Assembly: GCA_038823825.1 (NCBI GenBank)
Contig: JAWBCC010000001.1
Coordinates: 120,001 to 152,000, forward strand
Length of the DNA: 32,000 bases
Source of the DNA: Candidatus Hadarchaeales archaeon
GTDB lineage: Archaea > Hadarchaeota > Hadarchaeia > Hadarchaeales > Hadarchaeaceae
Direction of reading: 5' to 3'
Shown here: positions 15,829 to 32,000 of the stretch, in pieces
Numbering within the stretch: the first letter of the stretch is position 1
How the letters are laid out: each line of letters opens with the position of its first letter
Position numbers and translations under genes: made by a program
The notes under the pieces: model-generated
The model's database searches: none
Seen by the model: the letters and a program-made list of their open reading frames with translations, nothing else
What the model was told of the DNA's origin: nothing

Positions 15829-16644
15829 TCATTTGATAGCTCCGCGCGTGAGGCCCATTATCAGATACCTCTGGAAGATAAGAAAGACCACCAAAAGCGG
15901 AATCGAGGCTAGCAAAACGCCCGCAGCCAAAAGCGGATAATCTGGAGCTCTTCCGCCTATTCCGGCCAAAGTCGCTAAGCCATAGACGAGAGTCGTGTCA
16001 GGATACTCGAGCATGAAAGACGGAAGTATAAAGTCGTTGTATGGGACCAAGAACGCCATAAAGGCTATCACTCCTAGAGCCGGTTTTGCGAGGGGAAGTA
16101 TTACTTTTACGAAAGTCTTGAAGTGTCCGGCTCCGTCCATAATCGATGCTTCTACGAGTGTTTTCGGTATGGTATCCATGTATCCCTTTAAGAACCAAGT
16201 ATAGAACGGGACACTTGAACCCGCATAGATGAGTATCATTCCGGCCAAGTTAACTAAACCCAAGCTGCTCATTATCTTGTATATAGCGACCATTCCGACC
16301 AGCGAGGGGAACATTTGAGCAAAAAGCATAAAGGCAAGCATCTGTTTACGCCCGGCAAACTTCATAAAAGAGAAGGCGTATGCTGCCGGACATATCATCA
16401 CAAAGGTTAGAATTATCGTTCCAAGACAGATTATAGCCGTATTCACCGCCCAAAGGATGAAGTGCTGCTCACGGAATAACTTCACGAAGTTTTGGAAAGT
16501 TATGGATTCGGGCATAAGGCTCGGCGGTATGAACGTGCTTCTGAGAGAGGCCGTAAATATAAAGAAGACCGGGAACAACACGGCCAAAACGACGATGATC
16601 AGCATAAAATGACTGAGCAAAATTTCCAGCTTCTCTTTCTTCAT
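15829..16644 (-). CDS. Sugar ABC transporter permease (MalG-like)
   Basis: 6 TM helices and the EAA loop EASIMDGAGHFKTFVKVILPLAKP. ATGA overlap with the upstream permease gene. Confidence 0.9.
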   Translation of the reverse strand: MKKEKLEILLSHFMLIIVVLAVLFPVFFIFTASLRSTFIPPSLMPESITFQNFVKLFREQHFILWAVNTAIICLGTIILTFVMICPAAYAFSFMKFAGRKQMLAFMLFAQMFPSLVGMVAIYKIMSSLGLVNLAGMILIYAGSSVPFYTWFLKGYMDTIPKTLVEASIMDGAGHFKTFVKVILPLAKPALGVIAFMAFLVPYNDFILPSFMLEYPDTTLVYGLATLAGIGGRAPDYPLLAAGVLLASIPLLVVFLIFQRYLIMGLTRGAIK

Positions 16645-17522
16645 CTGACCACCTCTTTTGTGGCTCCAGTAATCTTGAGGTTTATGAAGGTCAGGCCGGC
16701 TAGGATGAAGAAGAGAATGACAGAGAAAGCCGCGGCTATAGCATAGAAGTGTCCTTCACCAAAGGCGAGCCTGTAGAAGTATGTTATCATTATGTCACTA
16801 CCTCCCGGGGCATTTGTAACTCCCGTCGGCGGTCCTCCCTCCGAAAGCATCCACACGACCGTAAAATTGTTGAAATGGAATGCGAATGTGAATATAAGAA
16901 TTGGGACTATCACAGACTTTAGAAGCGGAAGGGTAATTTTCCAAAATTTACGGATCTTACTTGCACCGTCAATTGCTGCGGCTTCATAGACACTCGGTGG
17001 AATGCTTTGGAGGCCTCCGAGGCAAGCACACATCATGAATGGAAAGGCGGTCCAAACATTCACAAGAAGTATTATCATCCTTGCTCCCCAGACGCTTTGA
17101 AATCCTCCCTTAAGGTAAAGGGACCAACTTGTTCCTAACAAACCTCTCCAAGCCATTATCGTTATCGTGGATGGAAGGGCCCAGGGGATTATCAGAAGAG
17201 TCCTGTAGATTGCCCTACCCTTGAGCTTAGGATTGTTCAGGATTATTGCGAGGACAAGTCCGATTGAGAATGCGATTCCAACTGAAAGAGCAGCGAACAA
17301 GAGGTTCCAACTGAAGACACCTAAGAAATATCTGGTGTAGCCTCCTTTGACGATCTCAGCGTAGTTCTGAAGTCCGACAAATTCGTAATGCGGATCATGA
17401 CCAGGACCCCAGTTTGTGAGGGAGATATAAATGTTGTATGTGCTGATGGCAAGGATCGCAAAGCTCATCCCTATGACCGCAGGGAGGATAAAAAGATATG
17501 CGCTTTTTTCTCCGATTTTCAT
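16641..17522 (-). CDS. Sugar ABC transporter permease (MalF-like)
   Basis: 6 TM helices and the EAA loop YEAAAIDGASKIRKFWKITLPLL. Confidence 0.9.
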   Translation of the reverse strand: MKIGEKSAYLFILPAVIGMSFAILAISTYNIYISLTNWGPGHDPHYEFVGLQNYAEIVKGGYTRYFLGVFSWNLLFAALSVGIAFSIGLVLAIILNNPKLKGRAIYRTLLIIPWALPSTITIMAWRGLLGTSWSLYLKGGFQSVWGARMIILLVNVWTAFPFMMCACLGGLQSIPPSVYEAAAIDGASKIRKFWKITLPLLKSVIVPILIFTFAFHFNNFTVVWMLSEGGPPTGVTNAPGGSDIMITYFYRLAFGEGHFYAIAAAFSVILFFILAGLTFINLKITGATKEVVR

Positions 17523-17526
17523 AACA

Positions 17527-18756
17527 TCACCTTCTCTTCGCTATCGACTCTTTCATCTGTTGCACAGCCTCCTCCAACGTGGATGCAGGATCCTGCCCTA
17601 GGACGATCATCTTCAGAGCGTTTGTCCAAGGCGTCCACACACTGTCCATTTCAGGGATTTTGGGCATTATTATTCCATTCTCTATCTGGGCGAGAACTAT
17701 TCTAACCTCTTCCTTATTTTCCATTTCAGCAAGCACATCAAGTCTGCTTGGGATTCTCCAGCCGGCCTGATGCAGAGTTCTTTGGGAATTTTCACTACTG
17801 AGGAATTTCGCAAGATTCATCGCTGTTTCAAAGTTCTTGGATTTTGGGTTGACCATGCAGACTTGAACCCCCACAAACGTTTTCGGATATTCTCCGTTCG
17901 GGAGCTTCGGAAAGTTTGATATCCTATAGGTTATTCCCGCTCTTCTTATTTCCTCGAAGGCCCAAGGTCCATCGATTATCACAGCCGCCCTGCCCGCTTT
18001 GAAATACTCACGCACCGAGTAGGGATTAAGAGTAGTATCTATCGGTAGGACACCGTCCTTTACCATTTGCTGGATGAATCGTGCGCCATCAATGGCGCCG
18101 GGATTTGCGAGTCCTATATTTTCAACATTCTCTTCATCCCCGAAAACATATGCCCCGTAGCCCGACATAATCGGAAAAGAGTAATAAGGATCGACATGTG
18201 GATAATAGAAACCAAAGAAGTCAGGTCTTCTCACGGATTTCGCATAATTGAGAAGGTCCTCCCAGTCTTCAAAAGTGTTCTCAACCAAGCCAGAATTGTA
18301 AATTAAAACTAAGCTCTCCATCAGGCATGGAAAACCCCATATCTTGTTTTCATATGTTACCGCAGAAAGAGCCTTTTCAAAGAATTTGCTTTTCTCGCTT
18401 TCGGGGAAATATTCGTCCGTGATTGGGGCGATAACGCCCATTTCTGCAAACTCTCCTATCCAGTCATGTGGACCGAGCAAAACATCTGGTCCCTTTCCGA
18501 TGGGAACACCAACTCGGTATCTCGATCTTAGATCTTCGATGTTTGCTACCCAGACAACTCTTACGGTGGTTCCTTCTTCTTTCTCAAAGATTTTGACGAG
18601 ATTCTCAACAGCTTCGACTTCGCTCCTGACTAATCCAATCCAGAGCGTGATTTCACCTCTGGGTATTAGCATTTGTCTAGTAGGGATGAGGATTACAAAA
18701 GCAACAACTGCAAGCAACATATATGTGAAGAGCCCAGGTGTTCGACTCAACCTCAC
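17527..18756 (-). CDS. Extracellular sugar (maltodextrin-type) ABC substrate-binding protein, N-terminally anchored
   Basis: 409 aa family-1 SBP pattern (GPDVLLGPHDWIGEF; IIDGPWA) with an N-terminal hydrophobic anchor. It is the first gene of the E-F-G operon. The start is GTG 18756, or ATG 18720. Confidence 0.85.
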   Translation of the reverse strand: MRLSRTPGLFTYMLLAVVAFVILIPTRQMLIPRGEITLWIGLVRSEVEAVENLVKIFEKEEGTTVRVVWVANIEDLRSRYRVGVPIGKGPDVLLGPHDWIGEFAEMGVIAPITDEYFPESEKSKFFEKALSAVTYENKIWGFPCLMESLVLIYNSGLVENTFEDWEDLLNYAKSVRRPDFFGFYYPHVDPYYSFPIMSGYGAYVFGDEENVENIGLANPGAIDGARFIQQMVKDGVLPIDTTLNPYSVREYFKAGRAAVIIDGPWAFEEIRRAGITYRISNFPKLPNGEYPKTFVGVQVCMVNPKSKNFETAMNLAKFLSSENSQRTLHQAGWRIPSRLDVLAEMENKEEVRIVLAQIENGIIMPKIPEMDSVWTPWTNALKMIVLGQDPASTLEEAVQQMKESIAKRR

Positions 18757-18838: not shown

Positions 18839-19930
18839 TTGATAAACTTGGCAAGCGTTACCCTGGAAAACGTCACCAAAAAATTTGGTCAAGTAACTGC
18901 AGTTGATAACGTTTCTTTAGAGGTTAAGGATGGGGAACTCGTTGTTCTTGTTGGGCCGAGTGGATGTGGAAAATCAACCTTGATCAGAATGATAGCAGGG
19001 CTTGAGACACCGGACGAAGGAAACATCTATTTAGATGATTTGCTTGTAAACGACTTGCCTCCCAAAGACCGGAACGTTGCAATGGTTTTTCAAGATTACG
19101 CTCTCTATCCACACATGACAGTTTTTGAGAATATGGCATTCGCTTTAGAGAATTTTGGATATGATGAGAGAGAAATTCGAAAGAGAGTCAAAGAGGCGGC
19201 CCATCTACTGGGAATCGAGAATCTTCTAGACAGGAAACCGGCGCAGTTATCTGGAGGTCAAAGGCAAAGAGTTGCACTTGGAAGAGCCATCGTTCGTGAA
19301 CCGAAAGTTTTCCTGTGGGATGAGCCGCTCAGCAATATTGACGCAAAACTGAGAGTCGAAATGAGGGCAGAACTGAGAAAGCTTCAGCGCAGGCTCAAGG
19401 TGACGACCATTCATGTTACGCACGATCAAGTCGAAGCAATGACAATGGCCGATAGGGTTGCCGTAATGAAGGACGGGAGGATAAGACAATTCGATTCACC
19501 GGAAAAAGTTTACAGCAAGCCTGCGGATGAATTCGTCGCGAGTTTCATAGGAAGCCCACCAATGAACTTCTTTGACTGTGTTTTGACGAGAAAGCGAGGA
19601 AAGCTCGTTATAGAGGCTGAAGAGTTTGTGTTGGATGTCCCAAGAGAACTGAAAGATATCCTCAAGGGTTTGGTTGGCAAGGAACTGAGATTTGGAATAA
19701 GACCCGAGGACATATGCTTTTCGACGAAGAAAGGCGGAATAAAAGCAAAGGTGGATGTTGTTGAGCCATTGGGAGCAGAAGTTCTTGTTCATCTTCTAAT
19801 CGGCAAATCTCCAGCCATGATGCGGACGGATCCGAAGAGTGCACCGAAACCTGGTGAAATGGTTTTACTCGAGTTCCCATCGGAGAAGTGGCACATCTTT
19901 GATAGAAAGACGACAAAGGCGATTATCTGA
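18839..19930 (+). CDS. Sugar ABC transporter ATP-binding protein (MalK/MsiK-like) with a C-terminal TOBE-like regulatory domain
   Basis: Walker A GPSGCGKST, signature LSGGQRQR, Walker B VFLWDEPLS, H-loop HVTHD. Candidate starts are TTG 18839 or TTG 18848 (MASVTLENV). Confidence 0.95.
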   Translation: MINLASVTLENVTKKFGQVTAVDNVSLEVKDGELVVLVGPSGCGKSTLIRMIAGLETPDEGNIYLDDLLVNDLPPKDRNVAMVFQDYALYPHMTVFENMAFALENFGYDEREIRKRVKEAAHLLGIENLLDRKPAQLSGGQRQRVALGRAIVREPKVFLWDEPLSNIDAKLRVEMRAELRKLQRRLKVTTIHVTHDQVEAMTMADRVAVMKDGRIRQFDSPEKVYSKPADEFVASFIGSPPMNFFDCVLTRKRGKLVIEAEEFVLDVPRELKDILKGLVGKELRFGIRPEDICFSTKKGGIKAKVDVVEPLGAEVLVHLLIGKSPAMMRTDPKSAPKPGEMVLLEFPSEKWHIFDRKTTKAII

Positions 19931-22900
19931 GACTGAGAAGGATCTTTAAGATTATGCCAGCCACCACTGCGATTCCGATACTTACTCCTATGAATGTGTA
20001 GTCGAGCTTGGGTTTTTCTTCGAATATTTCGACCGAATATCCCAAATTGTTCTCTCCTCGATCCCAGACGGTTTCACCTCCGCCAATGGCTTTAATCATG
20101 AATGTGAGTTTTACATCCGCGAATGGTCCCAATTCTGCGATCCACCACCCGGTGGTTGGATCGATTTGCATCTGCGTTTCTCCGCTACTACCTTTGTTGG
20201 TCCACCAAACGACAAAAACGCTTTCAATTGTCCCTTCGGTCTGGCATGAAACTCGCACGAAATTACCAAAAAGAACATAGCTCGTGTTTTTTATTTTTAG
20301 ACCGACAGGAGGCAAAGGAGTTCTAACTTTTACAGTCAGAGTTTTCCTCTTTTCTAAAGATCCAGACTTAGCCGTGACTGTTATCTCATAATCTCCGTCT
20401 GAGGTTTCCCTTCCAACCGATATGAACAGGCTTGCCGTGAATGGCGGATAGCCATTTTCAGGATAGACCGAGAGCAGAAAACCTGACGGACCGGAAATTT
20501 TGAGTTCCACCAGATTTTCATACACCCCCAAATTTTCGATTCTTAACTCCACAGTTTGATTTTCACCTGCTCTCGCCTGAATCTGAGATGGTATGATTTC
20601 AAGTCGGAAGTCTGCCACGGGCAGCGCGACCGTATAGTATACAATGACTGTTTTTGTATTAACATCTTTCAGATTTAACCTAAGTTTTTCTCCGTCGACG
20701 TGCACTATGTCGTTTTCGCCATCTATTTCCACTGTTACAGCAGGAAGTCCAGCCGGTAGGGTCAGCTCAAGCAGAATCTGTTCATTTTGCGCAGAGATAT
20801 CGACCTTTTGCATATTTTCATTCCAAGAGTAACTGACCTTCAGCGGCTTCCCTCTCACAATAGTTCTGCCAGAAAGGAGATTCGTGTTCTCAAGAGGTTT
20901 AGGAGATATAACTGTATAGTTCTCGAACGGCTTTACCCCGAGGAACACTTGATAATACGTTCTCAAAAATTCTGCAATCGACCAAGCCTGCGTCCAGCAA
21001 CCTTTTGGCTTATCTCTATCACCATCGCTAATCTCGTGAATGGCCCCAACGTTTGCTTGCTGGAGTAGTTGCTTTTTGAATAAATGAAAGAGATGTGAAG
21101 CTTCCCCAAGCTTATTCGATTCTGCCATGACTTCTATCGCAGGACCAGATAACCACGGCCAGACATCTCCGTTGTGATATGCGGGTGGATCCCACGTTTG
21201 ATCGTCAATTCCAACGTAAAGCGGATCCGCCGGATTTAGCGATCTTACACCATGCGCCGCTATCAGTCCGCTTGAGATCGCAGTTTTAATGGCTTGCTCT
21301 ATTTTCTCTGAGGGAAGCAAATTCTCGGCTACGGAGATAGCTATTAGAGCGTTCGGTCGGATTCTAGCCACTGCCTGCCCTGCGGGTGTAATATAATCGT
21401 TGAGGTATCCTGTCGATTGGTTCCAGAATTTAGCTTCAAAGTTCTTACGCGCATTTTCGGCTATCTCCCACCACTTCGCACTCTTTTGATTTTGTCCCAA
21501 AATTCCAGCAATTTTTGCCGCATCATCCAGAGCCTTTATCCACAAAGCCTGTATCTCTACGGGTTTTCCTATCCTAGGATCTCTCGAAGTGTCCATCCAA
21601 GTTTCCAAATTGTCACTTCTGACGAAGCCGTCTGTTGGATCACCGTAGACCGCCCAAGTTCTCTCGATCGCTCTTTCGATCACCGGGAAGATGTCGGAGA
21701 GAAATCCACTATCTCCACTGTACAGATAATACTCATAGCATCTGATGATGAACCACAAGGTGGCGTCGGAGGTCGTATAGGCGCGCCAGTCACCAATCCT
21801 GTTCGGAATGCGACCGTCGCTTTCCCTCTGAAATCCTGCGAAGCTTAGGATTATCTCTTTTGCTTCTTGAAGTCTACCAGTAACGAGTGCAGACCCGCTC
21901 AGACTTATGAAAGTGTCTCTTCCCCACCCCTGATTGAACCAAGGAAGACCAGCCCATATCACTTTTCCAAATTCTTCATTCACGATCAAACTGTCAACGG
22001 AGGCTACAGCAAGCTTTAGAGCTTTTGTTAATGAAGGATCCGAGGTCTGAATCTCGCATGACTGTATGAGCGAAAGAATTCTGGATCTCTTTGTGTCCAG
22101 CAGGTCGGAATAGCTATTGATCGCCGATCTCGCTAAAGATATGGCTTCCTGAGAGGTTTTACCAACAGCAATGGCAAATAGGACATCCCGAGCATTTTCA
22201 ACGACAAGAGTTCCACTTCTATAAACGTTCCAAAAAATCCGTTGTTTGTTTTCTATTCTCATTTCATCGAAAGGATATTCGTGCGTGGCGCTTCCCCCTC
22301 CCGACTGATAGGTGGCTCCTTCTCGACAGGTGATTGCCACATATGCCACATTCTCTCTGTCGGACGCCCTAGAATGAAGTACAAGCACACCATTCTCGAA
22401 GTATTCCTCGTCGCTATATGAGATATCCAGAAATGGTGTGAATCTGATGGTAGACTGTGAATCTCCTGCGTATCTTACGAAGAAAACGTTTAGGTTATCT
22501 GGAAGGAAAATTTCTTCGGTCCAGCCACCGGCGGATCTGAGCAGTTTGTAAGGCAGATATGTAAAAGTTGATGGGGCGGGCGTAATTCTTTGCCCGCCGA
22601 TTTCGGTTGCCCAGCTTTCAACGACTCGTTTATTCTTCACAGTAAAACCGGAAAACTGCGAAATTGGCTCACCAGTAGTTGAAATCCAGAGAAAAGAGTC
22701 TTTCTTGTTTGTGAAAGTGCAAGCCAAAGACCATTCCGAGTTACCGGTGATTGAAAATTCGGGTTCACCGAATTCTATTGATGAGTTGAGCCACATCGGA
22801 AAATTCTCAAAGATTCCCAGTTCGCTTGGAACTTCTCCGGACATCCCCACAGATTTTACCGCGTTTTCGGCAGCTTGGAGCGCAAGATTCAGGGCTGTGT

Positions 22901-24191
22901 AGCACTTCTGTGCCCAATCCTGAGAATCCCAGAACCAGTAGCAACTTGTTTCTGCCATCGCAAAATATCCCCAAGCCCTTTTCATGTAGCTCTCTGCCAG
23001 TGATCCGTAAATTTGAGAATCGATTTGTTTGAGTTGTTGTCTAACCTCCGCAACTCTTTGCCACATCTCTCTGTCTAGCTGGCTACCGGCCCAAGTCGAG
23101 AGGTCTAATCTTGCTCCGCCTACTCCCCAGGAGCCGGTTTTTATCTTTATCACGTCGGTCGGGCGGTAGACTTCACGCAGATACTCGCTGATAGTGGTTA
23201 ACCTTATCCAACCTTCATTTTTGATTCGCTCAAGAAATCCTGGCCAGAACCAGTCGTAATATCCGGCTCCTGCCTGTCGCATCCATCCGTTTTCACCATC
23301 GCTTAGTATGACTACGAGGAAAGGTTTGCTCGGATCGTTGTTCCACTGCTGAATTATTCTGAGTTGATCAATCAGGTAAGCCGGATCGAAGCCATCCTGC
23401 TGGTTCTGACCGAGCCAGTGCTCCCTTGGAATGACGATTATAAAAACTCCAGCATATTCGGCTAGGTGCGGCCTGAAAGCCAGCTCACAGTATGTTCTGG
23501 ACCATTTGGTGTTATCCGATCCAATGATGTGAAAGCTGTCGAAAAAGACCCACTCTATTCCAAAACTTTTCAACCATGGGATTATATTTTCGCTGAAGGC
23601 GAGTTCGGGTGGAAAGAATCCCTTCGGAGTAACTCCAAAATATTTCTTACACCACGCCAGCATCTTCTGGAAGTGGATTTGTGCATCCTCTCTTTCGATT
23701 AGCGGGAATATTGGGTGATAGAAACCATCGATCACGAGTTCCAATCTACCTGTTTGAATCGCCCGTCTGTACTCGTCCCAGATACCCGCCAGACTTGTGT
23801 CTTTTGAAACGAAATTCTCTTTTGCCAGAAAATCGAGTTGCCACAGAAGCGAACCCGTAAAGTGGACAGTTATCTTTGCTTCCGGATAGGTGTTTACGAG
23901 CGTCGCTGGCCTAAGATAGCAGAAGCCACACTCTTCGAAGACATCTTTAACAGTCATGCTTGAACCAGGACTCGTTGGACTGTTGAAATAATCCCAGCCG
24001 ATCTGCATTCCAGGATGGTAGATCGGTTGGTGAAAATGAACAGCGAATGCGATGTAAAGGGGGACTTGTGTCTGGCTTTTTGATGGTCTTGGGAGTAGTG
24101 CGACAGCACCCAAAAGGACAAGTATAACCAACAGTATCGCAAGTCGCATTCGAATGTTTGTATTATCTCTTGCTGGTAATAAATGTTTCAT
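19923..24191 (-). CDS. Cell-surface multidomain glycoside hydrolase: GH57 domain + amylo-alpha-1,6-glucosidase (GDE_C-like) domain + Ig/NEW3-like domain + putative starch-binding module + C-terminal TM anchor
   Basis: Signal peptide (LAILLVILVLLGAVALLPRPSKSQ). GH57 conserved regions are all present: HFHQPIY (24018-24038), GRLELV, FPPELAFS (Glu codon at 23604-23606), LSDGENGW (Asp codon at 23298-23300), AETSCYWFW. GDE_C motifs: GLPWFNQGWGRDTFISLSG (about 21909-21929) and YHNGDVWPW (21153-21179). C-terminal module: WW..GWW..WDRGENNLGYSV (about 20022-20303). TM plus basic tail at the 3' end. Confidence 0.85.
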   Translation of the reverse strand: MKHLLPARDNTNIRMRLAILLVILVLLGAVALLPRPSKSQTQVPLYIAFAVHFHQPIYHPGMQIGWDYFNSPTSPGSSMTVKDVFEECGFCYLRPATLVNTYPEAKITVHFTGSLLWQLDFLAKENFVSKDTSLAGIWDEYRRAIQTGRLELVIDGFYHPIFPLIEREDAQIHFQKMLAWCKKYFGVTPKGFFPPELAFSENIIPWLKSFGIEWVFFDSFHIIGSDNTKWSRTYCELAFRPHLAEYAGVFIIVIPREHWLGQNQQDGFDPAYLIDQLRIIQQWNNDPSKPFLVVILSDGENGWMRQAGAGYYDWFWPGFLERIKNEGWIRLTTISEYLREVYRPTDVIKIKTGSWGVGGARLDLSTWAGSQLDREMWQRVAEVRQQLKQIDSQIYGSLAESYMKRAWGYFAMAETSCYWFWDSQDWAQKCYTALNLALQAAENAVKSVGMSGEVPSELGIFENFPMWLNSSIEFGEPEFSITGNSEWSLACTFTNKKDSFLWISTTGEPISQFSGFTVKNKRVVESWATEIGGQRITPAPSTFTYLPYKLLRSAGGWTEEIFLPDNLNVFFVRYAGDSQSTIRFTPFLDISYSDEEYFENGVLVLHSRASDRENVAYVAITCREGATYQSGGGSATHEYPFDEMRIENKQRIFWNVYRSGTLVVENARDVLFAIAVGKTSQEAISLARSAINSYSDLLDTKRSRILSLIQSCEIQTSDPSLTKALKLAVASVDSLIVNEEFGKVIWAGLPWFNQGWGRDTFISLSGSALVTGRLQEAKEIILSFAGFQRESDGRIPNRIGDWRAYTTSDATLWFIIRCYEYYLYSGDSGFLSDIFPVIERAIERTWAVYGDPTDGFVRSDNLETWMDTSRDPRIGKPVEIQALWIKALDDAAKIAGILGQNQKSAKWWEIAENARKNFEAKFWNQSTGYLNDYITPAGQAVARIRPNALIAISVAENLLPSEKIEQAIKTAISSGLIAAHGVRSLNPADPLYVGIDDQTWDPPAYHNGDVWPWLSGPAIEVMAESNKLGEASHLFHLFKKQLLQQANVGAIHEISDGDRDKPKGCWTQAWSIAEFLRTYYQVFLGVKPFENYTVISPKPLENTNLLSGRTIVRGKPLKVSYSWNENMQKVDISAQNEQILLELTLPAGLPAVTVEIDGENDIVHVDGEKLRLNLKDVNTKTVIVYYTVALPVADFRLEIIPSQIQARAGENQTVELRIENLGVYENLVELKISGPSGFLLSVYPENGYPPFTASLFISVGRETSDGDYEITVTAKSGSLEKRKTLTVKVRTPLPPVGLKIKNTSYVLFGNFVRVSCQTEGTIESVFVVWWTNKGSSGETQMQIDPTTGWWIAELGPFADVKLTFMIKAIGGGETVWDRGENNLGYSVEIFEEKPKLDYTFIGVSIGIAVVAGIILKILLSLR

Positions 24192-26239
24192 TTCCTTTTC
24201 ATCAGTGCAACGGCGGCAACGATTATCACAATCACAATCACACCGATGATCGGAAGAACTGGAATCTCGGTGGGTTTTTCTACGGGCGCTTCGACCTCCG
24301 CCACGAGCGGAACCGCAGGCACGACCGTGTATCCCTCAACGCCAAAGGCGTTCGTGTTGAATCCCGAGAGCACGGTTCTTTGATCACGACCAGGTGGCAC
24401 AATTATGTCTAGAACGTTCGGTGAGACACCGACGGCATATGCGGCCGAGTCAGCGCCCAAAATCTTCCACTCTCTCTCCGCTGGAGTTGCTTCGTTTTCT
24501 GGAAGCGCCAATCTCCAGCTCCAATATTCGCTGAAGCCATCCTGTGAGCCAGAAATGATTACCGCGTGCCATTTGTAATCAGTTGGAAGATCACCTAGGT
24601 ATTGTCTGACAATACTTTTTGGCAAGGAAGCCAAGACCGTTCTCGAAGCCAAGTCGCAGGAGACGGTAAGAACTCCAGTTATGACATCATATTGTCCTGC
24701 GAAGACCACCCAATTCCTTCTAGCCTTATGTGGCTTGTAGAATCCGGTTATTTGAATTCCGAAATCCCAAGCGTGGGCTTCTTCTATTTTAATTCTCGGC
24801 CCCTCCCTGCTAAATGGTATGGTCTCTCCTCCAGGCTTACAATCCACCCAGACTTCCACGAGTTGATAGGAGAAACCAGCTTCTCCGCTCCACACGTTTC
24901 CTCCAAGCCTGTCGGCGGCGAACTCCACGGCGAAATAATAGTTCTGCGCATCCTCGAAAAACATGAATTTTGTGATATCAAACAGACCCGTCTTGCCTTG
25001 GAAATATGCGCTTTCCGGATATCTGTAGGTGCCAGGTCCGTAATCATCACCCACTGGGTCGGTAATTTCAACAACTCTTTCTGCAACCCATATCTTGAGC
25101 GGAGCAGTGTGCGAAATTGTGCCGTCGCTTGCTCTAACGGTGATTTCATAGATGCCCGAGGTGGTTTCTTTTGCAACTGAGATCGTCAAAGTTGAGGTAA
25201 ACGGTGGGGTCCCACTGGTTGGACTGAAGTTTACACTAACCCCACTGGGCAATCCTGTTGCTTCAAGCGAAACCGTCTGTGAATATCCGAGGAATCTTTT
25301 AACATTAACAGAAACCTGTGCAGACTTTCCGACCTGAATAATCCTGCTGCTAGGTGTTACCGCGATTGTGAAATATGGTCTTCCCGGAATTGGTCCCACG
25401 GCTGGAACCCTAGCATAGGTCCCAGTGTTTTCATTGAATCCGAGGAGAACACTCTTCTGAGTCATACCTTCAGGAACAAGTATGTCCATCGGTCTCGGTT
25501 CGACTTTTGCAGCCATTACCCTTGATTGCCAAGTTGCTCTGGCAGCATCTGGATCGGGTAACCAGCGAATGAAGATGAGAGATTTTTCAACCATGGCTAC
25601 CTTTCTCCACGCTCCAAGGTTGTCAGAGCCGACGAGTACTGTGCAATACCAAGGAGCTGATTCACTTGGGGATCCAACGACGGATTTTGGCACGCTTATT
25701 TGAACTTTCCCAGTTGCTTGGTTAGCTGTTACGAAGACATCGAAAACTTCTCCCGTTTGCCATCTTCCATGTGTGTTGTATCTTCCGCCGTAATTTCTCG
25801 GCCAGCCGTTCGCTCTCACCGCCCACTTCCAGCCATTCTGAATTACGACCTTCGCCGAATCCTCTGTTTCCGTGTCCGAGACGGGGATGACCGACGTGGC
25901 AGTCCCTGTTCCATCGTTTACGTAAATCTCTATGAGTTGAATGGAGAATCCATGTGGAGCACCATCTGGGTTCCCGCCGAGATTTTTGAATGTGAGTTCG
26001 AAGATTATGTTTGTTCCATCATCCTTGACCGCAAAGTAAGTCAGATCGAAAACTCCAGGAGCAAACTTGGGGTCCTCCGGATACATGAAGTCGTCAATTC
26101 CGTGGTCATCATCCTCCGGATCCTCCATCTCAAACAGGACGTTTACAGCTTGAGCTTTCGACGGTCTCGGTAGAATTATGAGCGAGAGCATCAGAAAGCC
26201 CACAATCAATATACATATTTCTCTCTTCATTCCCTCCAT
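24188..26239 (-). CDS. Cell-surface, apparently non-catalytic protein with two glucodextranase-C-like (SLH-like binding module) domains flanking an Ig/NEW3-like domain; C-terminal TM anchor
   Basis: Signal peptide (ICILIVGFLMLSLIILPRPSKAQA). Copy 1 (about 25395-26137) has EDPEDDDHGIDDFMYPEDPKFAPGVFDLTYF. Copy 2 (about 24310-25075) has TDPVGDDYGPGTYRYPESAYFQGKTGLFDITKF. The copies end in ILVPEGMTQKSVLLGFN and IIVPPGRDQRTVLSGFN. No glycosidase motifs were recognised. The C-terminus is IIGVIVIVIIVAAVALMKRK. Confidence 0.6.
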   Translation of the reverse strand: MEGMKREICILIVGFLMLSLIILPRPSKAQAVNVLFEMEDPEDDDHGIDDFMYPEDPKFAPGVFDLTYFAVKDDGTNIIFELTFKNLGGNPDGAPHGFSIQLIEIYVNDGTGTATSVIPVSDTETEDSAKVVIQNGWKWAVRANGWPRNYGGRYNTHGRWQTGEVFDVFVTANQATGKVQISVPKSVVGSPSESAPWYCTVLVGSDNLGAWRKVAMVEKSLIFIRWLPDPDAARATWQSRVMAAKVEPRPMDILVPEGMTQKSVLLGFNENTGTYARVPAVGPIPGRPYFTIAVTPSSRIIQVGKSAQVSVNVKRFLGYSQTVSLEATGLPSGVSVNFSPTSGTPPFTSTLTISVAKETTSGIYEITVRASDGTISHTAPLKIWVAERVVEITDPVGDDYGPGTYRYPESAYFQGKTGLFDITKFMFFEDAQNYYFAVEFAADRLGGNVWSGEAGFSYQLVEVWVDCKPGGETIPFSREGPRIKIEEAHAWDFGIQITGFYKPHKARRNWVVFAGQYDVITGVLTVSCDLASRTVLASLPKSIVRQYLGDLPTDYKWHAVIISGSQDGFSEYWSWRLALPENEATPAEREWKILGADSAAYAVGVSPNVLDIIVPPGRDQRTVLSGFNTNAFGVEGYTVVPAVPLVAEVEAPVEKPTEIPVLPIIGVIVIVIIVAAVALMKRK

Positions 26240-26258
26240 CTAAAGTATTCTTCTGCGG

Positions 26259-26275
26259 TTTTTATATCTTTCGAA
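26259..26275 (-). promoter_or_regulatory. Candidate BRE+TATA (minus strand: CGAAAG-ATATAAAA) for the 24188-26239 gene
   Basis: The TATA is centred about 25 nt upstream of ATG 26239, which implies a leaderless or near-leaderless mRNA. Confidence 0.35.
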
Positions 26276-26295
26276 AAAGTTTCCAGCTTCAGGCG

Positions 26296-26307
26296 AAACT
26301 TTTATTA
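26296..26307 (+). promoter_or_regulatory. Candidate BRE+TATA (CGAAAC-TTTTATTA) for the giant + strand ORF
   Basis: The TATA is centred about 28 nt upstream of GTG 26332, which implies a leaderless or near-leaderless mRNA. It mirrors the minus-strand element in the same 92-nt intergenic region. Confidence 0.35.
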
Positions 26308-26331
26308 GGAATATATGGAAAAAATTAAAAG

Positions 26332-29300
26332 GTGACGTTGAAAAAAATCTTTCCTGCATTTGTTTTTTTGGCGCTTTTCTTTATGGCGCCATTTGCTTCT
26401 TCGTCTAAAATTTTGGACGTTGGAGCGGCTGCTTCACCTTCGACATATCGGGCGCCCGATTGGGTAATGAACGCAGTTTTTTATCAGATAATGGTCGACC
26501 GTTTTTACAACGGAGACCCGTCTAATGATCCGGACAATAACACCCTTCTCCTTCGCTCCTGGACTAATATAAACGGTGTCACTTTCCCAGATCTCTATGC
26601 TAGAAAAATGCGCTGGACGGAGGATGTTGAAACAAACGTACTCTGGCCGGACGATTATGGAAACTTGAGATATGCACCTACACTCGGAAGAGACTATTAT
26701 GGCGGCGATTTCAAGGGGATAATGGACAAACTTCCTTATCTTGAGAATCTCGGAATAACAGCAATATACTTTAATCCGATTCATGACGGTCCGCACTTCC
26801 ACGGTTATACGGTTGAAAACTATGAATCAGCCAACAAGTTTTATGGCGGGCTCGACATGTTCAAACAAATGCTCTCCGCGCTAAAGGAGAAGGGAATAAG
26901 GGTGATTCTTGACGGTGTGTTCAACCACACGAGTTGTACACATCCATGGTTTGACCGCGAAAATAGATTCCCAGATTATCTGGGTGCATACGAAAGTCAA
27001 AATTCACCATATTTCAGTTGGTACAAATTTTGGCAATGGCCTCTGAACTATGAGGGATGGAACAATTTTTCTCATGTTCCGCAGCTCCAACTTACTGAAG
27101 GATACAAAGACTACCTTTACCGAAGTTCAAACAGTCTGTTGAAATACTGGAACGATATAGGAATAGACGGCTGGCGTCTCGATGTCGCCATGCAGATGAA
27201 AGATAGATTTGGCTGGGCGTTCTGGCGGGAATTCAGTCAAGCCTTCAGCCAGCTGAATTCAGAGGGATACCTCGTCGCGGAACCAGACCATGGAACGGCA
27301 GCTCAGCCAGATTACGTTACTCAGGGTTACCTAGACGGCGTCATGAACTATGCTTGGATGCACGCGGTTATAGACTGGGTTAATGGAACGGCTAGTCCGA
27401 GCAGCTTCGCGGGGAGACTGGAGTACATAAAGAATGCATATCCGGCAGATGCTTTCTACACACAGCTTAACATTCTGAGTTCGCATGACGATCACAGACT
27501 GAGAACGCGTGTTGGTGGAAGAATTGACAGGGTTAAGCTTGCCGTGATTTTCCAGATGACATACCCAGGCGCCCCGTGCATATGGTATGGGGATGAGGTC
27601 GGGATGACGAGCGACTATCCGAGGGGGAGTGGAACAGTCAGAGATGCGGATCCGTTTACTAGAAGACCGTTCCCCTGGCCAGAGCTAGGATACCCGGTCC
27701 CTGAACAACCAGACGTTCCGAACTGGGATATCTTCAGGCACTACCAAAACTTGATTTCGATAAGAAAGAGTTATCAAGTCCTTAGAACTGGAACGGTCGA
27801 GACTCTGATGACGGATGATGGTAAGAAGATTTTGGCACTATTCCGAAAACTTCCAAATCCAAGTTTAACAAAATATTCGAACTGGAGAACTGAATATGCG
27901 GTTCTCGTCTACAACAGTGGCGCTTCCCCGCAGAGCGTTACTCTCAATCTCACCGGAAAAGTTCCCAATGGTACGGAGCTCGTCGATGTTCTAAATGGAA
28001 ATCGAAAGTATACGGTAACAAACGGAACTGTTTCGCTAACTGTCGAAAACATGTGGGCAGCGATTCTGGTTTACACATCAAACCAACCACCGGTTGCAGA
28101 TTTCACGTTTTCTCCCACTTCTCCCGCTCCAGGTGAAACCGTGCAGTTTACTGATAACTCGAGAGATCCAGATGGGACAATAGTTTCCTGGCTATGGGAT
28201 TTTGGCGACGGGACTTCGAGCACCCAGCGTAATCCAACAAAGGTCTATACAGCATCCGGAACATACACAGTAAAGCTGACGGTGACTGACGATGGAGGCG
28301 CGAGCGCGACAGTCTCCAAATTGGTGGTTGTGTCAGAAGCTCCGGCGCCACCTCCGGGAGTCAAGCCAACAACCTTAACAATAGATCCTACCTCCTTTTC
28401 GCTAGCTTCAGGAGCTTCGAGAACTCTGATGGCGATTTTGAAGGATAACGAAAACAATCCGGTCGCAGGAAAGACGATTTTGTGGTCGGCAACTGTCGGG
28501 AGCATATCGTCCTCCTCCGTCACAGATTCAAACGGAATGGCTGCCGCAACCTACACGGCCCCATCTGTTACCGCTCAAACTTCAGTGACCATTACCGCAA
28601 CTTTTCAAGGTGACAGTCAGTATGCTTCATCAACCGGTCAAAGCATTGGAAGCATCTCGCCCATATCGGCTCAGTTGAGTCTGAGACCAATACCATCCAC
28701 TATAGCGGGTTCTGACATTATACTCAGCGGGGTGGTCGAAGATCAAGCCGGTAATCCTATACCAGGAGCATCTTTGAAAGTTCTCATAAATGGTCAGGTC
28801 GTTCAGACGGCAACGGCTGGTGGAGATGGAAGTTTCAGCATAGCCGTCACACTTCCTCCTGGCTCAAGCAGTCTAAGGCTAGAAGCCTACAGCGGAGAAG
28901 GAGAACTTCTTGCGTCATTCTCCCAAAATGTTACAACTTCTGCTGAATATTCTCCACCCACGGGAATTGACAGTGGAATGATTGTAACATATGGCAGTAT
29001 TCTTTCTGCGATCGGCTTGGCAATAGGTGTTCTTATCGGCAAAATCCGGATAACGGGCAAACTCTTCTCACTAATTTTTGCAGTCTTTCTTCTGCTTTCT
29101 TTGGTTCATACAGTTCCAGTCAATGCGCCCACTAGGACCGTTGATGGTTCTCCAGCCGACTGGACTGGCACCCCGCCAACAACTGTAAACACGTTTACTG
29201 TTTCCGCCGGGGAATTCATATGGAAGGATGCGCAAGGCGACGAGCGTACAGACCTGAATAATTGGCAACCGGATAGAAGAGTGGATCTTTTAGAGTTCAG

Positions 29301-32000
29301 AATCACTGCCGATACACAATATATATACTTCATGGCAAAAATGGTCGATATCGACATAGAATCTGGAAGTGGAGCTCCGTGTGTCCAAGTTGCAGTGGAT
29401 ACCGATAGGATAGCCGGATCAGGGGAGAACTGGTTTGGTGGATGGTCAGACACAGCGACGAGCAACTCCGCGCGTTGGGAGCGTCTGATTATGACGAGAT
29501 TTGGGAGCGGATCACAGAGGGTTTATGTGTTTAATACAAGTTGGGTGGATCAGGCGACATCAGATGACACTCAAGCGATATCTGCCCAAAATGAAACAAT
29601 CGAGTTCAGAGTTGGATGGGCGAGACTTGGAGTTTCGCCACCTTGCACCCTGAGGTTCACGGTGATAACTCACAGACAGAATACCGACGACAATTCTGTG
29701 GACATTTCTAATACCTCCGATGCTCTTGATGCGATAACAACAACCGGACCAACCACTTGGAACGAGGTCCAAGATCAAATAGTCGATTATTATTTTGACG
29801 TGAGTTTTGCTTCGAATGGCGAGGTCGTAGGATCTGTCCCTGTAGGCGCTTCAATAGATAGCGATATCTGGTGGGAGGGCGTTTTACATGATCAAGACAA
29901 TTCCTTCTACTTCTCACCCCAAGGGGAAACGACAGTACTCCCCCCATTGCTTGATAGAGGAAGGCGCATTCTATATGATCAAAACGTAACTGTCAGGCTT
30001 AGAACAAATGAGAACGACCTGAGCGAAGTTTGGCTTAGAATCTGGTGGGAGAACATTTATGAAAACAATGTTGTTGAAAATGCCGCCGTGAGATATCGGA
30101 TGTCAAAAGAAAGCTCGGATGGGACGTACGAATACTGGGTTACCACAATTCCCGCTCCGGGAAGGCCGGCAAGAATGTGGTATAGGTTCTATCTCGTTGA
30201 CAACGGCGGAACGGGCACATACAGCTGGGACATCTGGCAAAATCCGGTGAATATAGGAACGCAGGTGGACATCGATAGTTACGCCGATGACACTTTTCCG
30301 AGGAACGGAGGAACAGGAAAAATGTATGATTTTCCGCAAACTAGAACGGAGAGCACAGTTCAGCCTGTGGACAACTATGACTTCATGATCATCTTTTACG
30401 AAAACATACCGCCAGCCGCTGTTTCTCTTATTTCGCCAGAGAACGACGCTTTGCTGACATCGGTTCCGACCTTACGCTGGACGGCGTCAGTAGATCCGCA
30501 ACCATCCTCCGGTCTCGGATATCGCCTTCAGATTTCTAAAGTTTCCGACTTTTCCACAACTGTTGTTGATATATATGTGAAAGAAAACTCTTATCAGCCG
30601 AGCATCGGAGAAGGAGTATACTTCTGGAGGGTTAGAGCAGAAGACTATGATGGAAACGCGAGCAACTGGTCGGAGGTCAGACGCTTTCGGCTAGATCTCG
30701 GACCACCACCGGCTCCAACGCCGATTTCTCCGCCCGATAACTTCTGCACAAAAGAAAATCGAATAACCTTAAGCTGGACGAGAGTTCCGGATGCATCAGA
30801 GCCGGTTCTGTATCGTGTCGCTCTGAGTGATGATGCAGGTTTTCCATACGAAAACTTCACATCCGGCTGGGTCATGGAGAATAGCTGGCAGGTTGAGCTT
30901 CCCGAGGGAATATGGTACTGGAGAGTTTGCGCGAAGGACAACCTCGACCAGATCGGTGAGAATTCCGTGACCAAAAGATTTATCGTCGACATTACTCCAC
31001 CACAACCACCAGAGATCTTGTATCCTGAAAATGGTGAAAGCGTGAATGTGAGGAGACCAACACTCAGATGGTCGACTGTGACCGACGTAAGCATGCCTGT
31101 GACGTACGATCTTCAACTGAGTGGCTCCCCAACTTTCTCTACCCTTATCGTAGACAATTCTGGTCTCACGGAGAACTCGTATACTCTCACAATCGACCTA
31201 GAGGAAAGGGTTTACTACTGGAGAGTGAGAGCGAAGGACAATGCCGGAAATCTGAGTGATTGGGTTGTGTCCTCTTTCATTGTTGATCTCACGGCGCTAC
31301 CAGCCCCCACGGGCCTCTCCCCCACGGGTTTCATCAACACGAAAAGACCGCAGTTCCGTTGGTCTCCTGTACAAAGCATTTTTGATGTGGTGTACATCTT
31401 TGAACTCGATGATAGCCAAGACTTCTCAAGTCCTCTCGTGGTCGAAAACGCTCTAACAGATACTTCTTACCAGCTTCAGTTTGATCTATCAGATGGAAAA
31501 TATTATTGGAGGGTAAGAGCGAAGACAGAATTAAAAACGGGACCAGCGGCCAGCGCATCCTTTACGGTAGATACTATACCCCCATCAGCTCCAGAGATTT
31601 TGACATCCTTGCCGGCCAGCACTAGGGTTAGGAGATGGATGATAGTTGGAACAGCGGAGGCGAATGCAACCGTTCAGTGTTTTGTTAACGATTCCCTAGT
31701 TGCGGAAAATGTGGCAGAGAATGGAAGCTTCACGCTGTGGGTTACCTTCCAACTCGGACAGAATAGCGTAAAGTTCAGAGCCGTTGACAGAGCAGGAAAC
31801 GCGAGCGTCTTTACGTCTTCGATCGGAATTAAGGTTACCGGAGGACTCGGAATTCGTCTGACTGCAGACCGACTCCAAGCAGGAGTTGAGCGTGCCTTCG
31901 CACTAGTCGGATATCAAACAAGCATTCAAGAAATAAGAGTGAAGACAAATAAGGATGTCGCTGCTCCGGCGATTTACGTCGAAGAGCTTATGCCCTGGGA
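26332..32000 (+). CDS. Giant secreted multidomain alpha-glucan-active protein (partial, 3' end beyond the window): signal peptide, GH13 catalytic domain, PKD, 2 Ig-like domains, TM hairpin, binding-module-like domain, Alpha-amylase_N/CBM34-like domain, 4 FN3-like repeats, Ig-like domain
   Basis: Frame +1 has no stop from the TAA at 26326-26328 to nt 32000 (1889 codons, verified by hand). GH13 regions: FYQIMVDRFYNGDPSND, VILDGVFNH, GIDGWRLDVA, YLVAEP, LSSHDD. PKD domain (28096-28332): WDFGDGTSS..GTYTVKLTVTDDGG. The ORF is missing from the supplied track. The start codon is uncertain (GTG 26332 or TTG 26338). Confidence 0.88.
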   Translation, partial: MTLKKIFPAFVFLALFFMAPFASSSKILDVGAAASPSTYRAPDWVMNAVFYQIMVDRFYNGDPSNDPDNNTLLLRSWTNINGVTFPDLYARKMRWTEDVETNVLWPDDYGNLRYAPTLGRDYYGGDFKGIMDKLPYLENLGITAIYFNPIHDGPHFHGYTVENYESANKFYGGLDMFKQMLSALKEKGIRVILDGVFNHTSCTHPWFDRENRFPDYLGAYESQNSPYFSWYKFWQWPLNYEGWNNFSHVPQLQLTEGYKDYLYRSSNSLLKYWNDIGIDGWRLDVAMQMKDRFGWAFWREFSQAFSQLNSEGYLVAEPDHGTAAQPDYVTQGYLDGVMNYAWMHAVIDWVNGTASPSSFAGRLEYIKNAYPADAFYTQLNILSSHDDHRLRTRVGGRIDRVKLAVIFQMTYPGAPCIWYGDEVGMTSDYPRGSGTVRDADPFTRRPFPWPELGYPVPEQPDVPNWDIFRHYQNLISIRKSYQVLRTGTVETLMTDDGKKILALFRKLPNPSLTKYSNWRTEYAVLVYNSGASPQSVTLNLTGKVPNGTELVDVLNGNRKYTVTNGTVSLTVENMWAAILVYTSNQPPVADFTFSPTSPAPGETVQFTDNSRDPDGTIVSWLWDFGDGTSSTQRNPTKVYTASGTYTVKLTVTDDGGASATVSKLVVVSEAPAPPPGVKPTTLTIDPTSFSLASGASRTLMAILKDNENNPVAGKTILWSATVGSISSSSVTDSNGMAAATYTAPSVTAQTSVTITATFQGDSQYASSTGQSIGSISPISAQLSLRPIPSTIAGSDIILSGVVEDQAGNPIPGASLKVLINGQVVQTATAGGDGSFSIAVTLPPGSSSLRLEAYSGEGELLASFSQNVTTSAEYSPPTGIDSGMIVTYGSILSAIGLAIGVLIGKIRITGKLFSLIFAVFLLLSLVHTVPVNAPTRTVDGSPADWTGTPPTTVNTFTVSAGEFIWKDAQGDERTDLNNWQPDRRVDLLEFRITADTQYIYFMAKMVDIDIESGSGAPCVQVAVDTDRIAGSGENWFGGWSDTATSNSARWERLIMTRFGSGSQRVYVFNTSWVDQATSDDTQAISAQNETIEFRVGWARLGVSPPCTLRFTVITHRQNTDDNSVDISNTSDALDAITTTGPTTWNEVQDQIVDYYFDVSFASNGEVVGSVPVGASIDSDIWWEGVLHDQDNSFYFSPQGETTVLPPLLDRGRRILYDQNVTVRLRTNENDLSEVWLRIWWENIYENNVVENAAVRYRMSKESSDGTYEYWVTTIPAPGRPARMWYRFYLVDNGGTGTYSWDIWQNPVNIGTQVDIDSYADDTFPRNGGTGKMYDFPQTRTESTVQPVDNYDFMIIFYENIPPAAVSLISPENDALLTSVPTLRWTASVDPQPSSGLGYRLQISKVSDFSTTVVDIYVKENSYQPSIGEGVYFWRVRAEDYDGNASNWSEVRRFRLDLGPPPAPTPISPPDNFCTKENRITLSWTRVPDASEPVLYRVALSDDAGFPYENFTSGWVMENSWQVELPEGIWYWRVCAKDNLDQIGENSVTKRFIVDITPPQPPEILYPENGESVNVRRPTLRWSTVTDVSMPVTYDLQLSGSPTFSTLIVDNSGLTENSYTLTIDLEERVYYWRVRAKDNAGNLSDWVVSSFIVDLTALPAPTGLSPTGFINTKRPQFRWSPVQSIFDVVYIFELDDSQDFSSPLVVENALTDTSYQLQFDLSDGKYYWRVRAKTELKTGPAASASFTVDTIPPSAPEILTSLPASTRVRRWMIVGTAEANATVQCFVNDSLVAENVAENGSFTLWVTFQLGQNSVKFRAVDRAGNASVFTSSIGIKVTGGLGIRLTADRLQAGVERAFALVGYQTSIQEIRVKTNKDVAAPAIYVEELMPW
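28978..29127 (+). other. Internal TM hairpin: an anchor-like TM (MIVTYGSILSAIGLAIGVLIG), the basic loop KIRITGK, and a signal-peptide-like segment (LFSLIFAVFLLLSLVHTVPVNA) inside the giant ORF
   Basis: Two hydrophobic stretches of about 15-21 residues are separated by a loop with three positive charges. The second ends in V-N-A followed by Pro. Confidence 0.6.
30409..31578 (+). repeat. Four tandem protein-level repeats (98, 98, 99 and 95 aa) of an FN3-like beta-sandwich module inside the giant ORF
   Basis: Unit boundaries are 30409, 30703, 30997, 31294 and 31578. Each unit carries P-x-L-(R/S)-W near its start, and then (Y/W/F)-(Y/F)-W-R-V-(R/C)-A-(K/E)-(D/T) and, in three of the four units, G-(N/E)-x-S. 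Each ends in F-x-(V/L)-D followed by a Pro-rich linker. The DNA copies are strongly diverged. Confidence 0.7.

Follow-up and report, generated by a model that had tools for sequence, protein, structure and literature searches.

Closest described systems and a giant Hadarchaeales gene

TVAI, the GH13 alpha-amylase I of Thermoactinomyces vulgaris R-47 (PDB 1JI1 and 5Z0U), is a soluble, secreted enzyme of 637 aa that carries CBM34 at its N-terminus and has starch and pullulan as substrates. In the Mal-II/MD cluster of the Thermococcales (Pyrococcus furiosus, Thermococcus), the gene for a membrane-anchored amylopullulanase lies beside malEFG-malK-type importer genes, and in the Sus system of Bacteroides the GH13 amylase SusG and the starch-binding proteins SusE/F are separate outer-membrane lipoproteins that accompany a TonB-dependent porter. 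Here we analyse a giant gene that recalls each of these systems. It begins near position 26332 on the forward strand of a 32,000-nucleotide stretch of a Candidatus Hadarchaeales archaeon genome (GenBank assembly GCA_038823825.1, contig JAWBCC010000001.1, positions 120,001 to 152,000; hereafter the window), runs off the right-hand end of that window, and, although its enzyme family is ordinary, has an unusual architecture, fused and three-pass. The reading that we favour, at a probability of roughly 0.78, is that this is an intact gene for a three-pass surface protein composed of two fused surface proteins, with a GH13 alpha-glucan hydrolase that feeds an importer. Judged by its domains and gene context, a surface alpha-glucan hydrolase supplying the neighbouring importer is the most likely function of the product.

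In the arrangement that we infer for its membrane topology, substrate, binding role and cooperation with its neighbours, the first ectodomain would be a TVAI/neopullulanase-like GH13 hydrolase, spaced from the membrane by a stalk of PKD, Big_1 and CarboxypepD_reg domains. A first transmembrane helix (TM1), an eight-residue Lys/Arg loop on the cytoplasmic side and a second helix (TM2) would then lead into a second ectodomain that is likely a binding or spacer array, made up of a glucodextranase-C/CBM9-like sandwich, a CBM34-like module, four FN3-fold repeats, an Ig domain and a PGF-pre-PGF domain, and a third helix with a basic tail would close the protein. At the cell surface, the GH13 module would cut alpha-glucans of the starch, glycogen or pullulan type to malto-oligosaccharides, working beside the anchored GH57-GDE and Glucodextran_C proteins of the neighbouring, divergent genes. 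Import of these products would fall to the adjacent MalEFGK-type ABC transporter, and the fused second half would hold a binding scaffold at 1:1 stoichiometry next to the enzyme.

Domains A, B and C of TVAI all align with the giant protein, as does the long insert before GGD. The order of modules is different, however: the giant protein opens with its catalytic module, and a CBM34-like one follows ~1200 residues downstream, past two transmembrane helices. A motif resembling the fifth conserved region (CSR-V-like) reads VPQLQ in the giant protein and LPKLN in TVAI. As in the Thermococcales cluster, an anchored extracellular alpha-glucan hydrolase would lie near an importer, and the locus likewise contains Glucodextran_C-type domains and a C-terminal transmembrane anchor. 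The Thermococcales enzyme, however, is a GH57 protein with one ectodomain and one anchor, whereas the present enzyme is of family GH13 and continues into a second surface protein, with three passes in all, and the locus encodes a separate GH57-GDE protein besides. The parallel with Sus lies in a surface GH13 enzyme beside a multi-domain, Ig-like putative binder and a dedicated importer; the difference is that enzyme and putative binder form one polypeptide at an archaeal cytoplasmic membrane, served by an ABC importer. A further point of reference is the glucodextranase of Arthrobacter globiformis (1UG9), which is the best PDB fold for a model of the first domain of the second ectodomain (NTD2, see below) and whose domain B is weakly matched at aa 1770-1826 (Glucodextran_B). 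Unlike that enzyme, the giant protein has a GH13 rather than a GH15 catalytic domain, and NTD2 gives no significant match to PF09985. Our search of the literature found no description of the giant protein or of Hadarchaeota amylases, and no described case in which one three-pass polypeptide unites a PGF-pre-PGF surface protein with a GH13 enzyme.

Extent and integrity of the reading frame

Frame +1 holds 1890 sense codons and zero stops between 26329 and 32000. The upstream stop is a TAA at 26326-26328 and, counted from the GTG at 26332, 1889 full codons lie inside the window; the same count in the first-pass annotation was exact on retranslation. Stops occur at 0.0389 per codon in the window, which puts the probability of 1889 open codons at ~3e-33, and the longest open run in shuffles of the region (n=200) was 273 codons; chance is therefore ruled out as an explanation of the frame. 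The gene is missing from the accompanying ORF (open reading frame) track, whose entries between 26332 and 32000 are antisense and no longer than 149 aa each, because that track omits ORFs that overrun the window end, as the first-pass annotation had presumed. It is indeed the largest gene in the window, the runner-up encoding 1422 aa.

The protein is already deposited in GenBank, uncharacterised, as MEM1689026.1 (P0345 in our searches; 1993 aa), which shows 0 mismatches to the window translation over 1862 aa. Its label, 'alpha amylase N-terminal ig-like domain-containing protein' from a Candidatus Hadarchaeales archaeon metagenome-assembled genome (MAG), is shared by MEM1704265.1 and MEM1874390.1. 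This record is the same protein as the product of the giant ORF, but its start lies 27 codons further in, which costs it the signal peptide; it was annotated automatically, and the hairpin, the fusion and the function are all undescribed there. Ten flanking window proteins are likewise exact matches to entries of such a MAG (MEM1689003-MEM1689024). An exact look-up of the 683-aa neighbour gave no match, probably through a different start call. On alignment to the window translation, MEM1689026.1 runs 131 residues further (ENWVEVPLPK...GLSWFAITSPPSTPLIEYVTIAVLFCVGAVVGFFLSSKIFKRSGKRQ), so that the stop should fall at about window position 32392-32394, ~393 nt beyond the edge. The true length and C-terminus, which had been left undefined, are thereby settled: the full protein has 2018-2020 aa, depending on the start.

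The start and its surroundings are as follows; residue numbers throughout count from GTG 26332.

26240..26331, no strand: divergent A/T-rich intergenic region of 92 nt between the giant gene (plus strand) and the Glucodextran_C/GH57-GDE operon (minus strand)
26332..26340, plus strand: candidate starts, GTG 26332 (2020 aa) and the preferred TTG 26338 (2018 aa)

Annotators differ on this point. JGI and ENA use GTG 26332 (2020 aa) and Logan uses TTG 26338 (2018 aa); PGAP chose the TTG of codon 28 (window 26413-26415; 1993 aa), at the cost of a signal-peptide region of 27 residues. Because the ATG of an orthologue with 72% identity (P0002) lines up with TTG 26338, and because the codons skipped by PGAP encode a hydrophobic signal segment, the PGAP start is probably wrong. 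TATA-like boxes (TTTTATTA and AATATAT) sit 15-30 nt upstream of the start, where they may serve as promoter elements. A scan for sigma-70 promoters and terminators was empty, as expected since the host is an archaeon, to which the sigma-70 model is not relevant.

Protein searches recovered a 2020-aa relative at 99% identity and 100% coverage (P0001), P0002 (2017 aa, 72%), a further 72% orthologue (P0359) and P0003 (2112 aa, 54%). P0001 belongs to a cluster of about 20 near-identical members from NCBI, ENA, Logan and JGI assemblies, MEM1689026.1 among them. At the DNA level, the window differs from a JGI contig (L001) by 34 substitutions in 5669 nt, 17 synonymous and 17 non-synonymous (dN/dS 0.30), and from a second near-identical contig (L010) by 32 substitutions; there are 0 indels in either comparison. 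P0002, P0359 and P0003 each consist of a single frame that is open end to end, and the four hydrophobic segments are kept at both 72% and 54% identity. Against the 72% orthologue, the proportion of non-synonymous differences (pN) is 0.10 in the GH13 module, 0.35-0.40 in the signal and transmembrane segments and 0.13-0.25 elsewhere; the synonymous proportion (pS, 0.76-0.92) is far above it in each region. Only pN and pS are given for this pair because dS is saturated. The worry that a frameshift or a chimeric assembly had produced the frame is thus laid to rest, since the orthologues and the near-identical copies all keep it open, and by these comparisons the ORF is an intact gene of Candidatus Hadarchaeales archaeon, neither an assembly artefact nor a pseudogene. 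A search through GTDB species genomes and JGI metagenome contigs, with the family alignment as query, gave L010 and otherwise unrelated matches, and the family appears to be confined to a few Hadarchaeales lineages.

Domain content and the transmembrane hairpin

The first half of the protein, up to and including the hairpin, contains the following features.

26332..26403, plus strand: signal peptide, aa 1 to ~24, ...IFPAFVFLALFFMAPFASS (Kyte-Doolittle peak 1.97 at aa 6-24)
26437..28074, plus strand: GH13 alpha-amylase-family module with domains A, B and C, aa ~36-581 (PF00128, E 1.4e-54)
28081..28317, plus strand: PKD domain, aa 584-662 (PF18911, E 7.4e-24, 84.1 bits; PF00801, E 9.5e-18, 64.4 bits)
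28402..28887, plus strand: stalk of a Big_1 Ig-like domain, aa 691-766 (PF02369, 46.2 bits), and a CarboxypepD_reg-like domain, aa 798-852 (PF13620, 34.3 bits)
28981..29127, plus strand: transmembrane hairpin by hydropathy, comprising TM1 (aa 884-905), the basic loop GKIRITGK and TM2 (aa 907-932, ending VPVNA|P)

By sequence, the catalytic module clearly belongs to GH13, with TVAI as its nearest relative. The Pfam profile is matched over its whole length (positions 1-446/446; 186.5 bits vs a cut-off of 22), and the complete catalytic set proposed from the bare sequence was borne out by this profile check: all four motifs named there are present (DGVFNH at 194-199, GWRLDVA at 280-286, LVAEP at 314-318 and SSHDD at 383-387), the D/E/D triad is intact (nucleophile D284, acid/base E317, and H385-D386), and these four conserved regions line up with the catalytic positions in TVAI and do not vary in P0002 or P0003. 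Among solved structures, the best match is TVAI, or neopullulanase 1 (5z0u, 1ji1; E 8e-66, chain residues 123-625), and SusG is also among the PDB sequence matches. The catalytic domain begins ~12 residues past the signal peptide, and the PDB alignment starts at TVAI residue 123, after the N domain of that enzyme. The PKD domain deserves the word 'textbook' given to it, both models exceeding their gathering scores; the two stalk domains also score above their cut-offs, and the Ig-like domains predicted earlier are recovered as Pfam matches to Big_1, CarboxypepD_reg, Big_13 and Big_6. The predicted signal peptide and hairpin correspond to hydrophobic segments at 6-24, 884-905 and 907-929, all kept in the orthologues: P0002 has an equivalent of the N-terminal segment, and P0002 and P0003 both retain those of the hairpin. 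Cleavage of the signal peptide is predicted. The positive-inside rule would place the basic loop and the basic C-terminal tail in the cytoplasm and both large regions outside.

Linker lengths between the two halves vary among the fused orthologues from 8 to ~90 aa, and relatives in which the halves are separate genes bear on the origin of the hairpin. On a contig of the Hadesarchaea MAG GCA_030018345.1 (L007), a GH13 gene whose product is 44% identical to that of the window stops straight after domain C (...LPILGGILAIVIALFFILRKK*). After an A/T-rich gap of 160 nt there follows a separate gene with a signal peptide (...LLMIACFLAAMSGFVEA preceding GTRTIDGSSGDW, with TRTIDGSSGDW after the signal peptide) that encodes NTD2 and the rest of the second half. 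One L007 protein (P0121) is flagged 'partial' at NCBI, yet the DNA has a genuine stop, the gap and the new signal peptide. On a second contig (L006), the first-half gene ends after CarboxypepD_reg and the second half (P0271) begins 87 nt later with its own signal peptide, MWMKHVNKTTGGKFPKKLGTIVLFVSLGLMLTLTTARVFAQA|SLDNDIWW; its start Met aligns to the internal M1000 of the fused P0003. Both fused and split states thus exist in the clade, as L007 and L006 carry separate genes and the window, P0002 and P0003 the fused form. The 683-aa, 1422-aa and 582-aa proteins of the window each have a signal peptide, a C-terminal transmembrane segment and a basic tail, and against this layout the giant protein reads as two 'signal peptide ... 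C-terminal anchor' proteins in tandem. As judged from these alignments, the hairpin is where the C-terminal anchor of surface protein 1 runs, in frame, into the signal peptide of protein 2.

In P0003, the hairpin loop is a Lys/Pro-rich stretch of ~90 residues that resembles the cytoplasmic tails at the C-termini of related proteins. Lys/Pro/Glu-rich low-complexity tails of KPPxEKP repeats follow the transmembrane anchors at the C-termini of P0003 and P0271, and KPPxEKP-type sequence makes up the loop at residues ~925-1000 of P0003 (contig L003). A 1049-aa protein (P0270, contig L005) was considered as a stand-alone second half and rejected, as TM1 and TM2 are still present at its N-terminus. 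Homology to the giant gene continues upstream of its ATG, and the adjoining gene for a solute-binding protein (SBP) encodes 264 aa rather than 409 aa. P0270 is therefore read as the remnant of a ~10-kb deletion, or possibly of an assembly join. At L005 8100-9100 (Logan SRR17863203_11090) the truncated SBP gene joins codon ~870 of the giant gene, and this contig is without MalK, GH57-GDE, Glucodextran_C and the whole GH13 half.

The second ectodomain and the C-terminus contain the following features.

29128..29850, plus strand: beta-sandwich of ~240 aa designated NTD2, aa 933-1173, outside any Pfam or NCBIfam family (AF2 model, pLDDT 92.4)
29860..30408, plus strand: module with a CBM34-type Alpha-amylase_N Ig-like domain, aa 1216-1297 (PF02903, 28.3 bits vs 23, E 2e-6)
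30409..31578, plus strand: four tandem FN3-fold repeats of ~97 aa each, aa 1360-1749 (pairwise identity 28-43%)
30409-30702, 30703-30996, 30997-31293 and 31294-31578, plus strand: the individual repeats R1, R2, R3 and R4
31639..31809, plus strand: Ig-like domain of Big_6/Glucodextran_B type, aa 1770-1826 (PF17936, 38.4 bits, above cut-off; PF09136 weak)
31867..32000, plus strand: start of a PGF-pre-PGF domain (aa 1846-1981 in the full-length protein), which the end of the window truncates

NTD2 matched no Pfam or NCBIfam model at E<=1, and nothing was found for it among PDB sequences or in a PDB profile search. A library of 1.84 billion proteins nevertheless yielded 447 representatives, in which the domain mostly occupies positions ~25-275. 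In most of them it thus lies directly after the signal peptide, which fits the fusion origin. The hosts are archaea and bacteria, including Anaerolineae, and the proteins include MYXO-CTERM proteins; a lamin-tail domain (LTD), DUF11 repeats or MYXO-CTERM often come next. Two motifs, GE[FY]IW.DA.GDERTD and RFTV.T.R, recur in the window and in P0121-P0269, and we consider NTD2 a candidate new domain family. In a Foldseek search, the top match of the predicted structure was the glucodextranase 1ug9 (E 1.4e-6, TMq 0.55), followed by the CBM9 structure 1i82. The CBM34-type module downstream is duplicated in P0003, P0270 and P0271. Hence the claim that this half contains binding modules holds only in part: a CBM34-type match and a predicted fold resembling glucodextranase and CBM9 mark two candidate binding modules.

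The four FN3-like repeats noted in the first reading were upheld at the level of predicted structure, with a seven-strand FN3 fold at aa 1360-1749. They share the signature YYWRVRA.D..GN, and a model of R3 (AF2, pLDDT 97.8) is matched at TM 0.6-0.72 and probability 1.00 by FN3 structures from CDO, GH84C and titin. There was no PF00041 match, just weak Pfam matches to Ig_Rha78A_N, Big_13 and Ig_J, and no DNA-level tandem repeat underlies the four protein repeats. At the C-terminus, TIGR04213 scores 69.7 bits (cut-off 28) on the full-length sequence, with the first ~44 residues inside the window. The last transmembrane anchor (aa 1992-2010) and the basic tail KIFKRSGKRQ lie beyond it, as read from P0345 and P0001. 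The C-terminus (...PLIEYVTIAVLFCVGAVVGFFLSSKIFKRSGKRQ) has no PGF motif and no PGF-CTERM model matched it at E<=1, and we have therefore assumed a plain transmembrane anchor.

Locus, competing readings and biological meaning

The genes to the left of the giant gene complete the locus.

15829-16644 and 16641-17522, minus strand: permeases (Pfam)
17527-18756, minus strand: solute-binding protein (Pfam)
18839-19930, plus strand: MalK-like ATPase (Pfam)
19923-24191, minus strand: GH57+GDE_C (amylo-alpha-1,6-glucosidase) protein, 1422 aa, with a signal peptide and a C-terminal transmembrane anchor
24188-26239, minus strand: Glucodextran_C protein, 683 aa (PF09985 in two stretches, E 2e-90), with a signal peptide and a very hydrophobic C-terminal anchor

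The 4-nt overlap of the last two genes suggests an operon. The 1422-aa protein is apparently an extracellular, anchored fusion of debranching/amylopullulanase type, and the 683-aa protein, which is nearly all Glucodextran_C, may be a non-catalytic surface protein that binds glucans or belongs to the envelope. Anchored alpha-glucan hydrolases therefore adjoin an SBP, two permeases and a MalK-type ATPase, the composition of a starch-utilisation locus, with putative functional coupling; the same order is found next to the 72% orthologue (contig L002). Most Hadarchaeota MAGs are described as sugar and amino-acid heterotrophs (PMC10811742), and the reading of a surface alpha-glucan hydrolase fits that account.

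On L001 (6410-16435), downstream of the giant gene and outside the window, a convergent gene for a 1162-aa sulfatase/phosphodiesterase+GH13 fusion overlaps its 3' end by ~25 nt, and beyond it lie genes for a GT5 glycogen synthase, a branching enzyme (CBM48-GH13), GH57 and GH77; with the window's starch locus they make up a large alpha-glucan metabolism island. The 582-aa protein mentioned above is a transglutaminase-core protein (11434-13182, plus strand) with a signal peptide, a C-terminal transmembrane segment and a basic tail, a combination that appears to be the organism's general mode of surface anchoring, rather than PGF-CTERM. Elsewhere in the window, a proteasome-activating nucleotidase (13230-14426, plus strand), a TATA-binding protein (6929-7483, plus strand) and a diphthamide synthase (2005-2679, minus strand) are archaeal markers. 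GC content is 43-49% overall, without a compositional break at the giant gene, and a tRNA search of the window found none.

Several observations weigh against the reading of a fused, three-pass alpha-glucan hydrolase with a binding scaffold, or at least against parts of it. The GH13 module stays below every NCBIfam equivalog cut-off (MalZ is best, at 271.6 vs 568; cyclomaltodextrinase gives 244.5 bits vs 540), so its substrate is not readable from homology. Its VPQLQ motif, at 249-253, departs from the MPKLN typical of neopullulanases, and no CBM34 precedes the catalytic domain as it does in TVAI, the sole PF02903 match being the one at aa 1216-1297; any placement in the neopullulanase/TVAI-type subfamilies GH13_20/21 is therefore tentative. 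The tie between NTD2 and glucodextranase domain C or CBM9 is by predicted fold only: an hhalign comparison with the Glucodextran_C domain (PF09985) of the neighbouring protein was weak (E 0.004, probability 8%), as was BLASTP between the two. L006 carries a degenerate, out-of-frame stretch resembling TM1, a hint that this copy may be a secondary split; the change in the clade may have been fusion or fission. Finally, the PGAP start would place the enzyme in the cytoplasm.

Of the competing explanations, the one that survives best would refine rather than exclude the three-pass reading. It proposes a polyprotein that is cut by signal peptidase after TM2, giving two surface proteins, each with an anchor of its own (GH13-stalk-TM1-loop-TM2 and NTD2...PGF-pre-PGF-TM3), in a fixed 1:1 ratio. 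TM2 does retain the n-h-c layout of a signal peptide with small residues at -3/-1 (VNA in the window, VMA in P0002, AQA in P0003), and these fall exactly at the VEA|G, AQA|S and ALA|H sites of the stand-alone homologues. The residue at +1 is nevertheless Pro in the window and in P0002/P0359 (VNA-P, VMA-P), where an unfused homologue has Gly, and Pro at +1 blocks cleavage by type I signal peptidase. We consider processing of this kind unlikely. Somewhat more room may be left, tentatively, for the broader idea that the hairpin is a working device of one sort or the other: either a processed internal signal peptide, or one in which Pro at +1 evolved to block cleavage and to tether the ectodomains. 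If true, a processed hairpin would let a single precursor yield two ectoproteins that are anchored independently, a prokaryotic surface 'polyprotein', and an uncut hairpin would keep catalytic and binding ectodomains side by side on a three-pass protein. Either would be an undescribed archaeal route to a fixed-stoichiometry enzyme-plus-binder surface complex, and NTD2 would be a new, widespread family of glycan-binding modules.

It is also conceivable, though in our view unlikely, that the second half is mainly a structural or adhesion protein of the envelope, unrelated to starch, which was fused to GH13 only incidentally. PGF-pre-PGF and FN3/Ig arrays belong to the generic repertoire of archaeal surface proteins, and NTD2 occurs in many proteins that have no carbohydrate-active enzyme domain (those with LTD, DUF11 or MYXO-CTERM). 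Yet the second half holds a CBM34-type amylase N-domain, resembles domains B and C of a glucan hydrolase, and adjoins a GH13 gene in all contexts seen, fused or unfused. A cytoplasmic enzyme started from the TTG of codon 28, acting on imported maltodextrins in the manner of MalZ or TVAII, is very improbable: it has in its favour the PGAP start of MEM1689026.1 and the fact that MalZ and cyclomaltodextrinase are the top NCBIfam similarities, but the 27 upstream codons encode a classic hydrophobic signal segment whose position is kept in the 72% orthologue, the PKD, Ig and FN3 arrays and the transmembrane pattern make topological sense only with ectodomain 1 outside, the best full-length structural relative is the secreted TVAI, and JGI, ENA and Logan all choose an upstream start. 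The idea that two adjacent genes were merged through a lost stop, a frameshift or a chimeric contig can be regarded as effectively refuted already, for although L007 and L006 carry the halves as separate genes and MAG assemblies can contain errors, the same frame recurs in the near-identical members from four independent data sources and, despite their varied linkers, in the 72% and 54% orthologues, with zero indels against L001 or L010 and purifying selection on both halves.

The fused three-pass hydrolase thus bears on more than one question. It is a clear natural case of two 'signal peptide ... transmembrane anchor' proteins that have merged, with both forms surviving in relatives, and as such is useful for studying how the topology of membrane proteins evolves. 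It is also instructive for annotation, since the start used in GenBank drops the signal peptide and would mislocalise the enzyme. The Hadarchaeota are mostly uncultured, and their inferred sugar heterotrophy rests on gene lists alone; for one lineage among them, this locus offers a concrete, testable picture of the extracellular capture and degradation of starch-like polymers.

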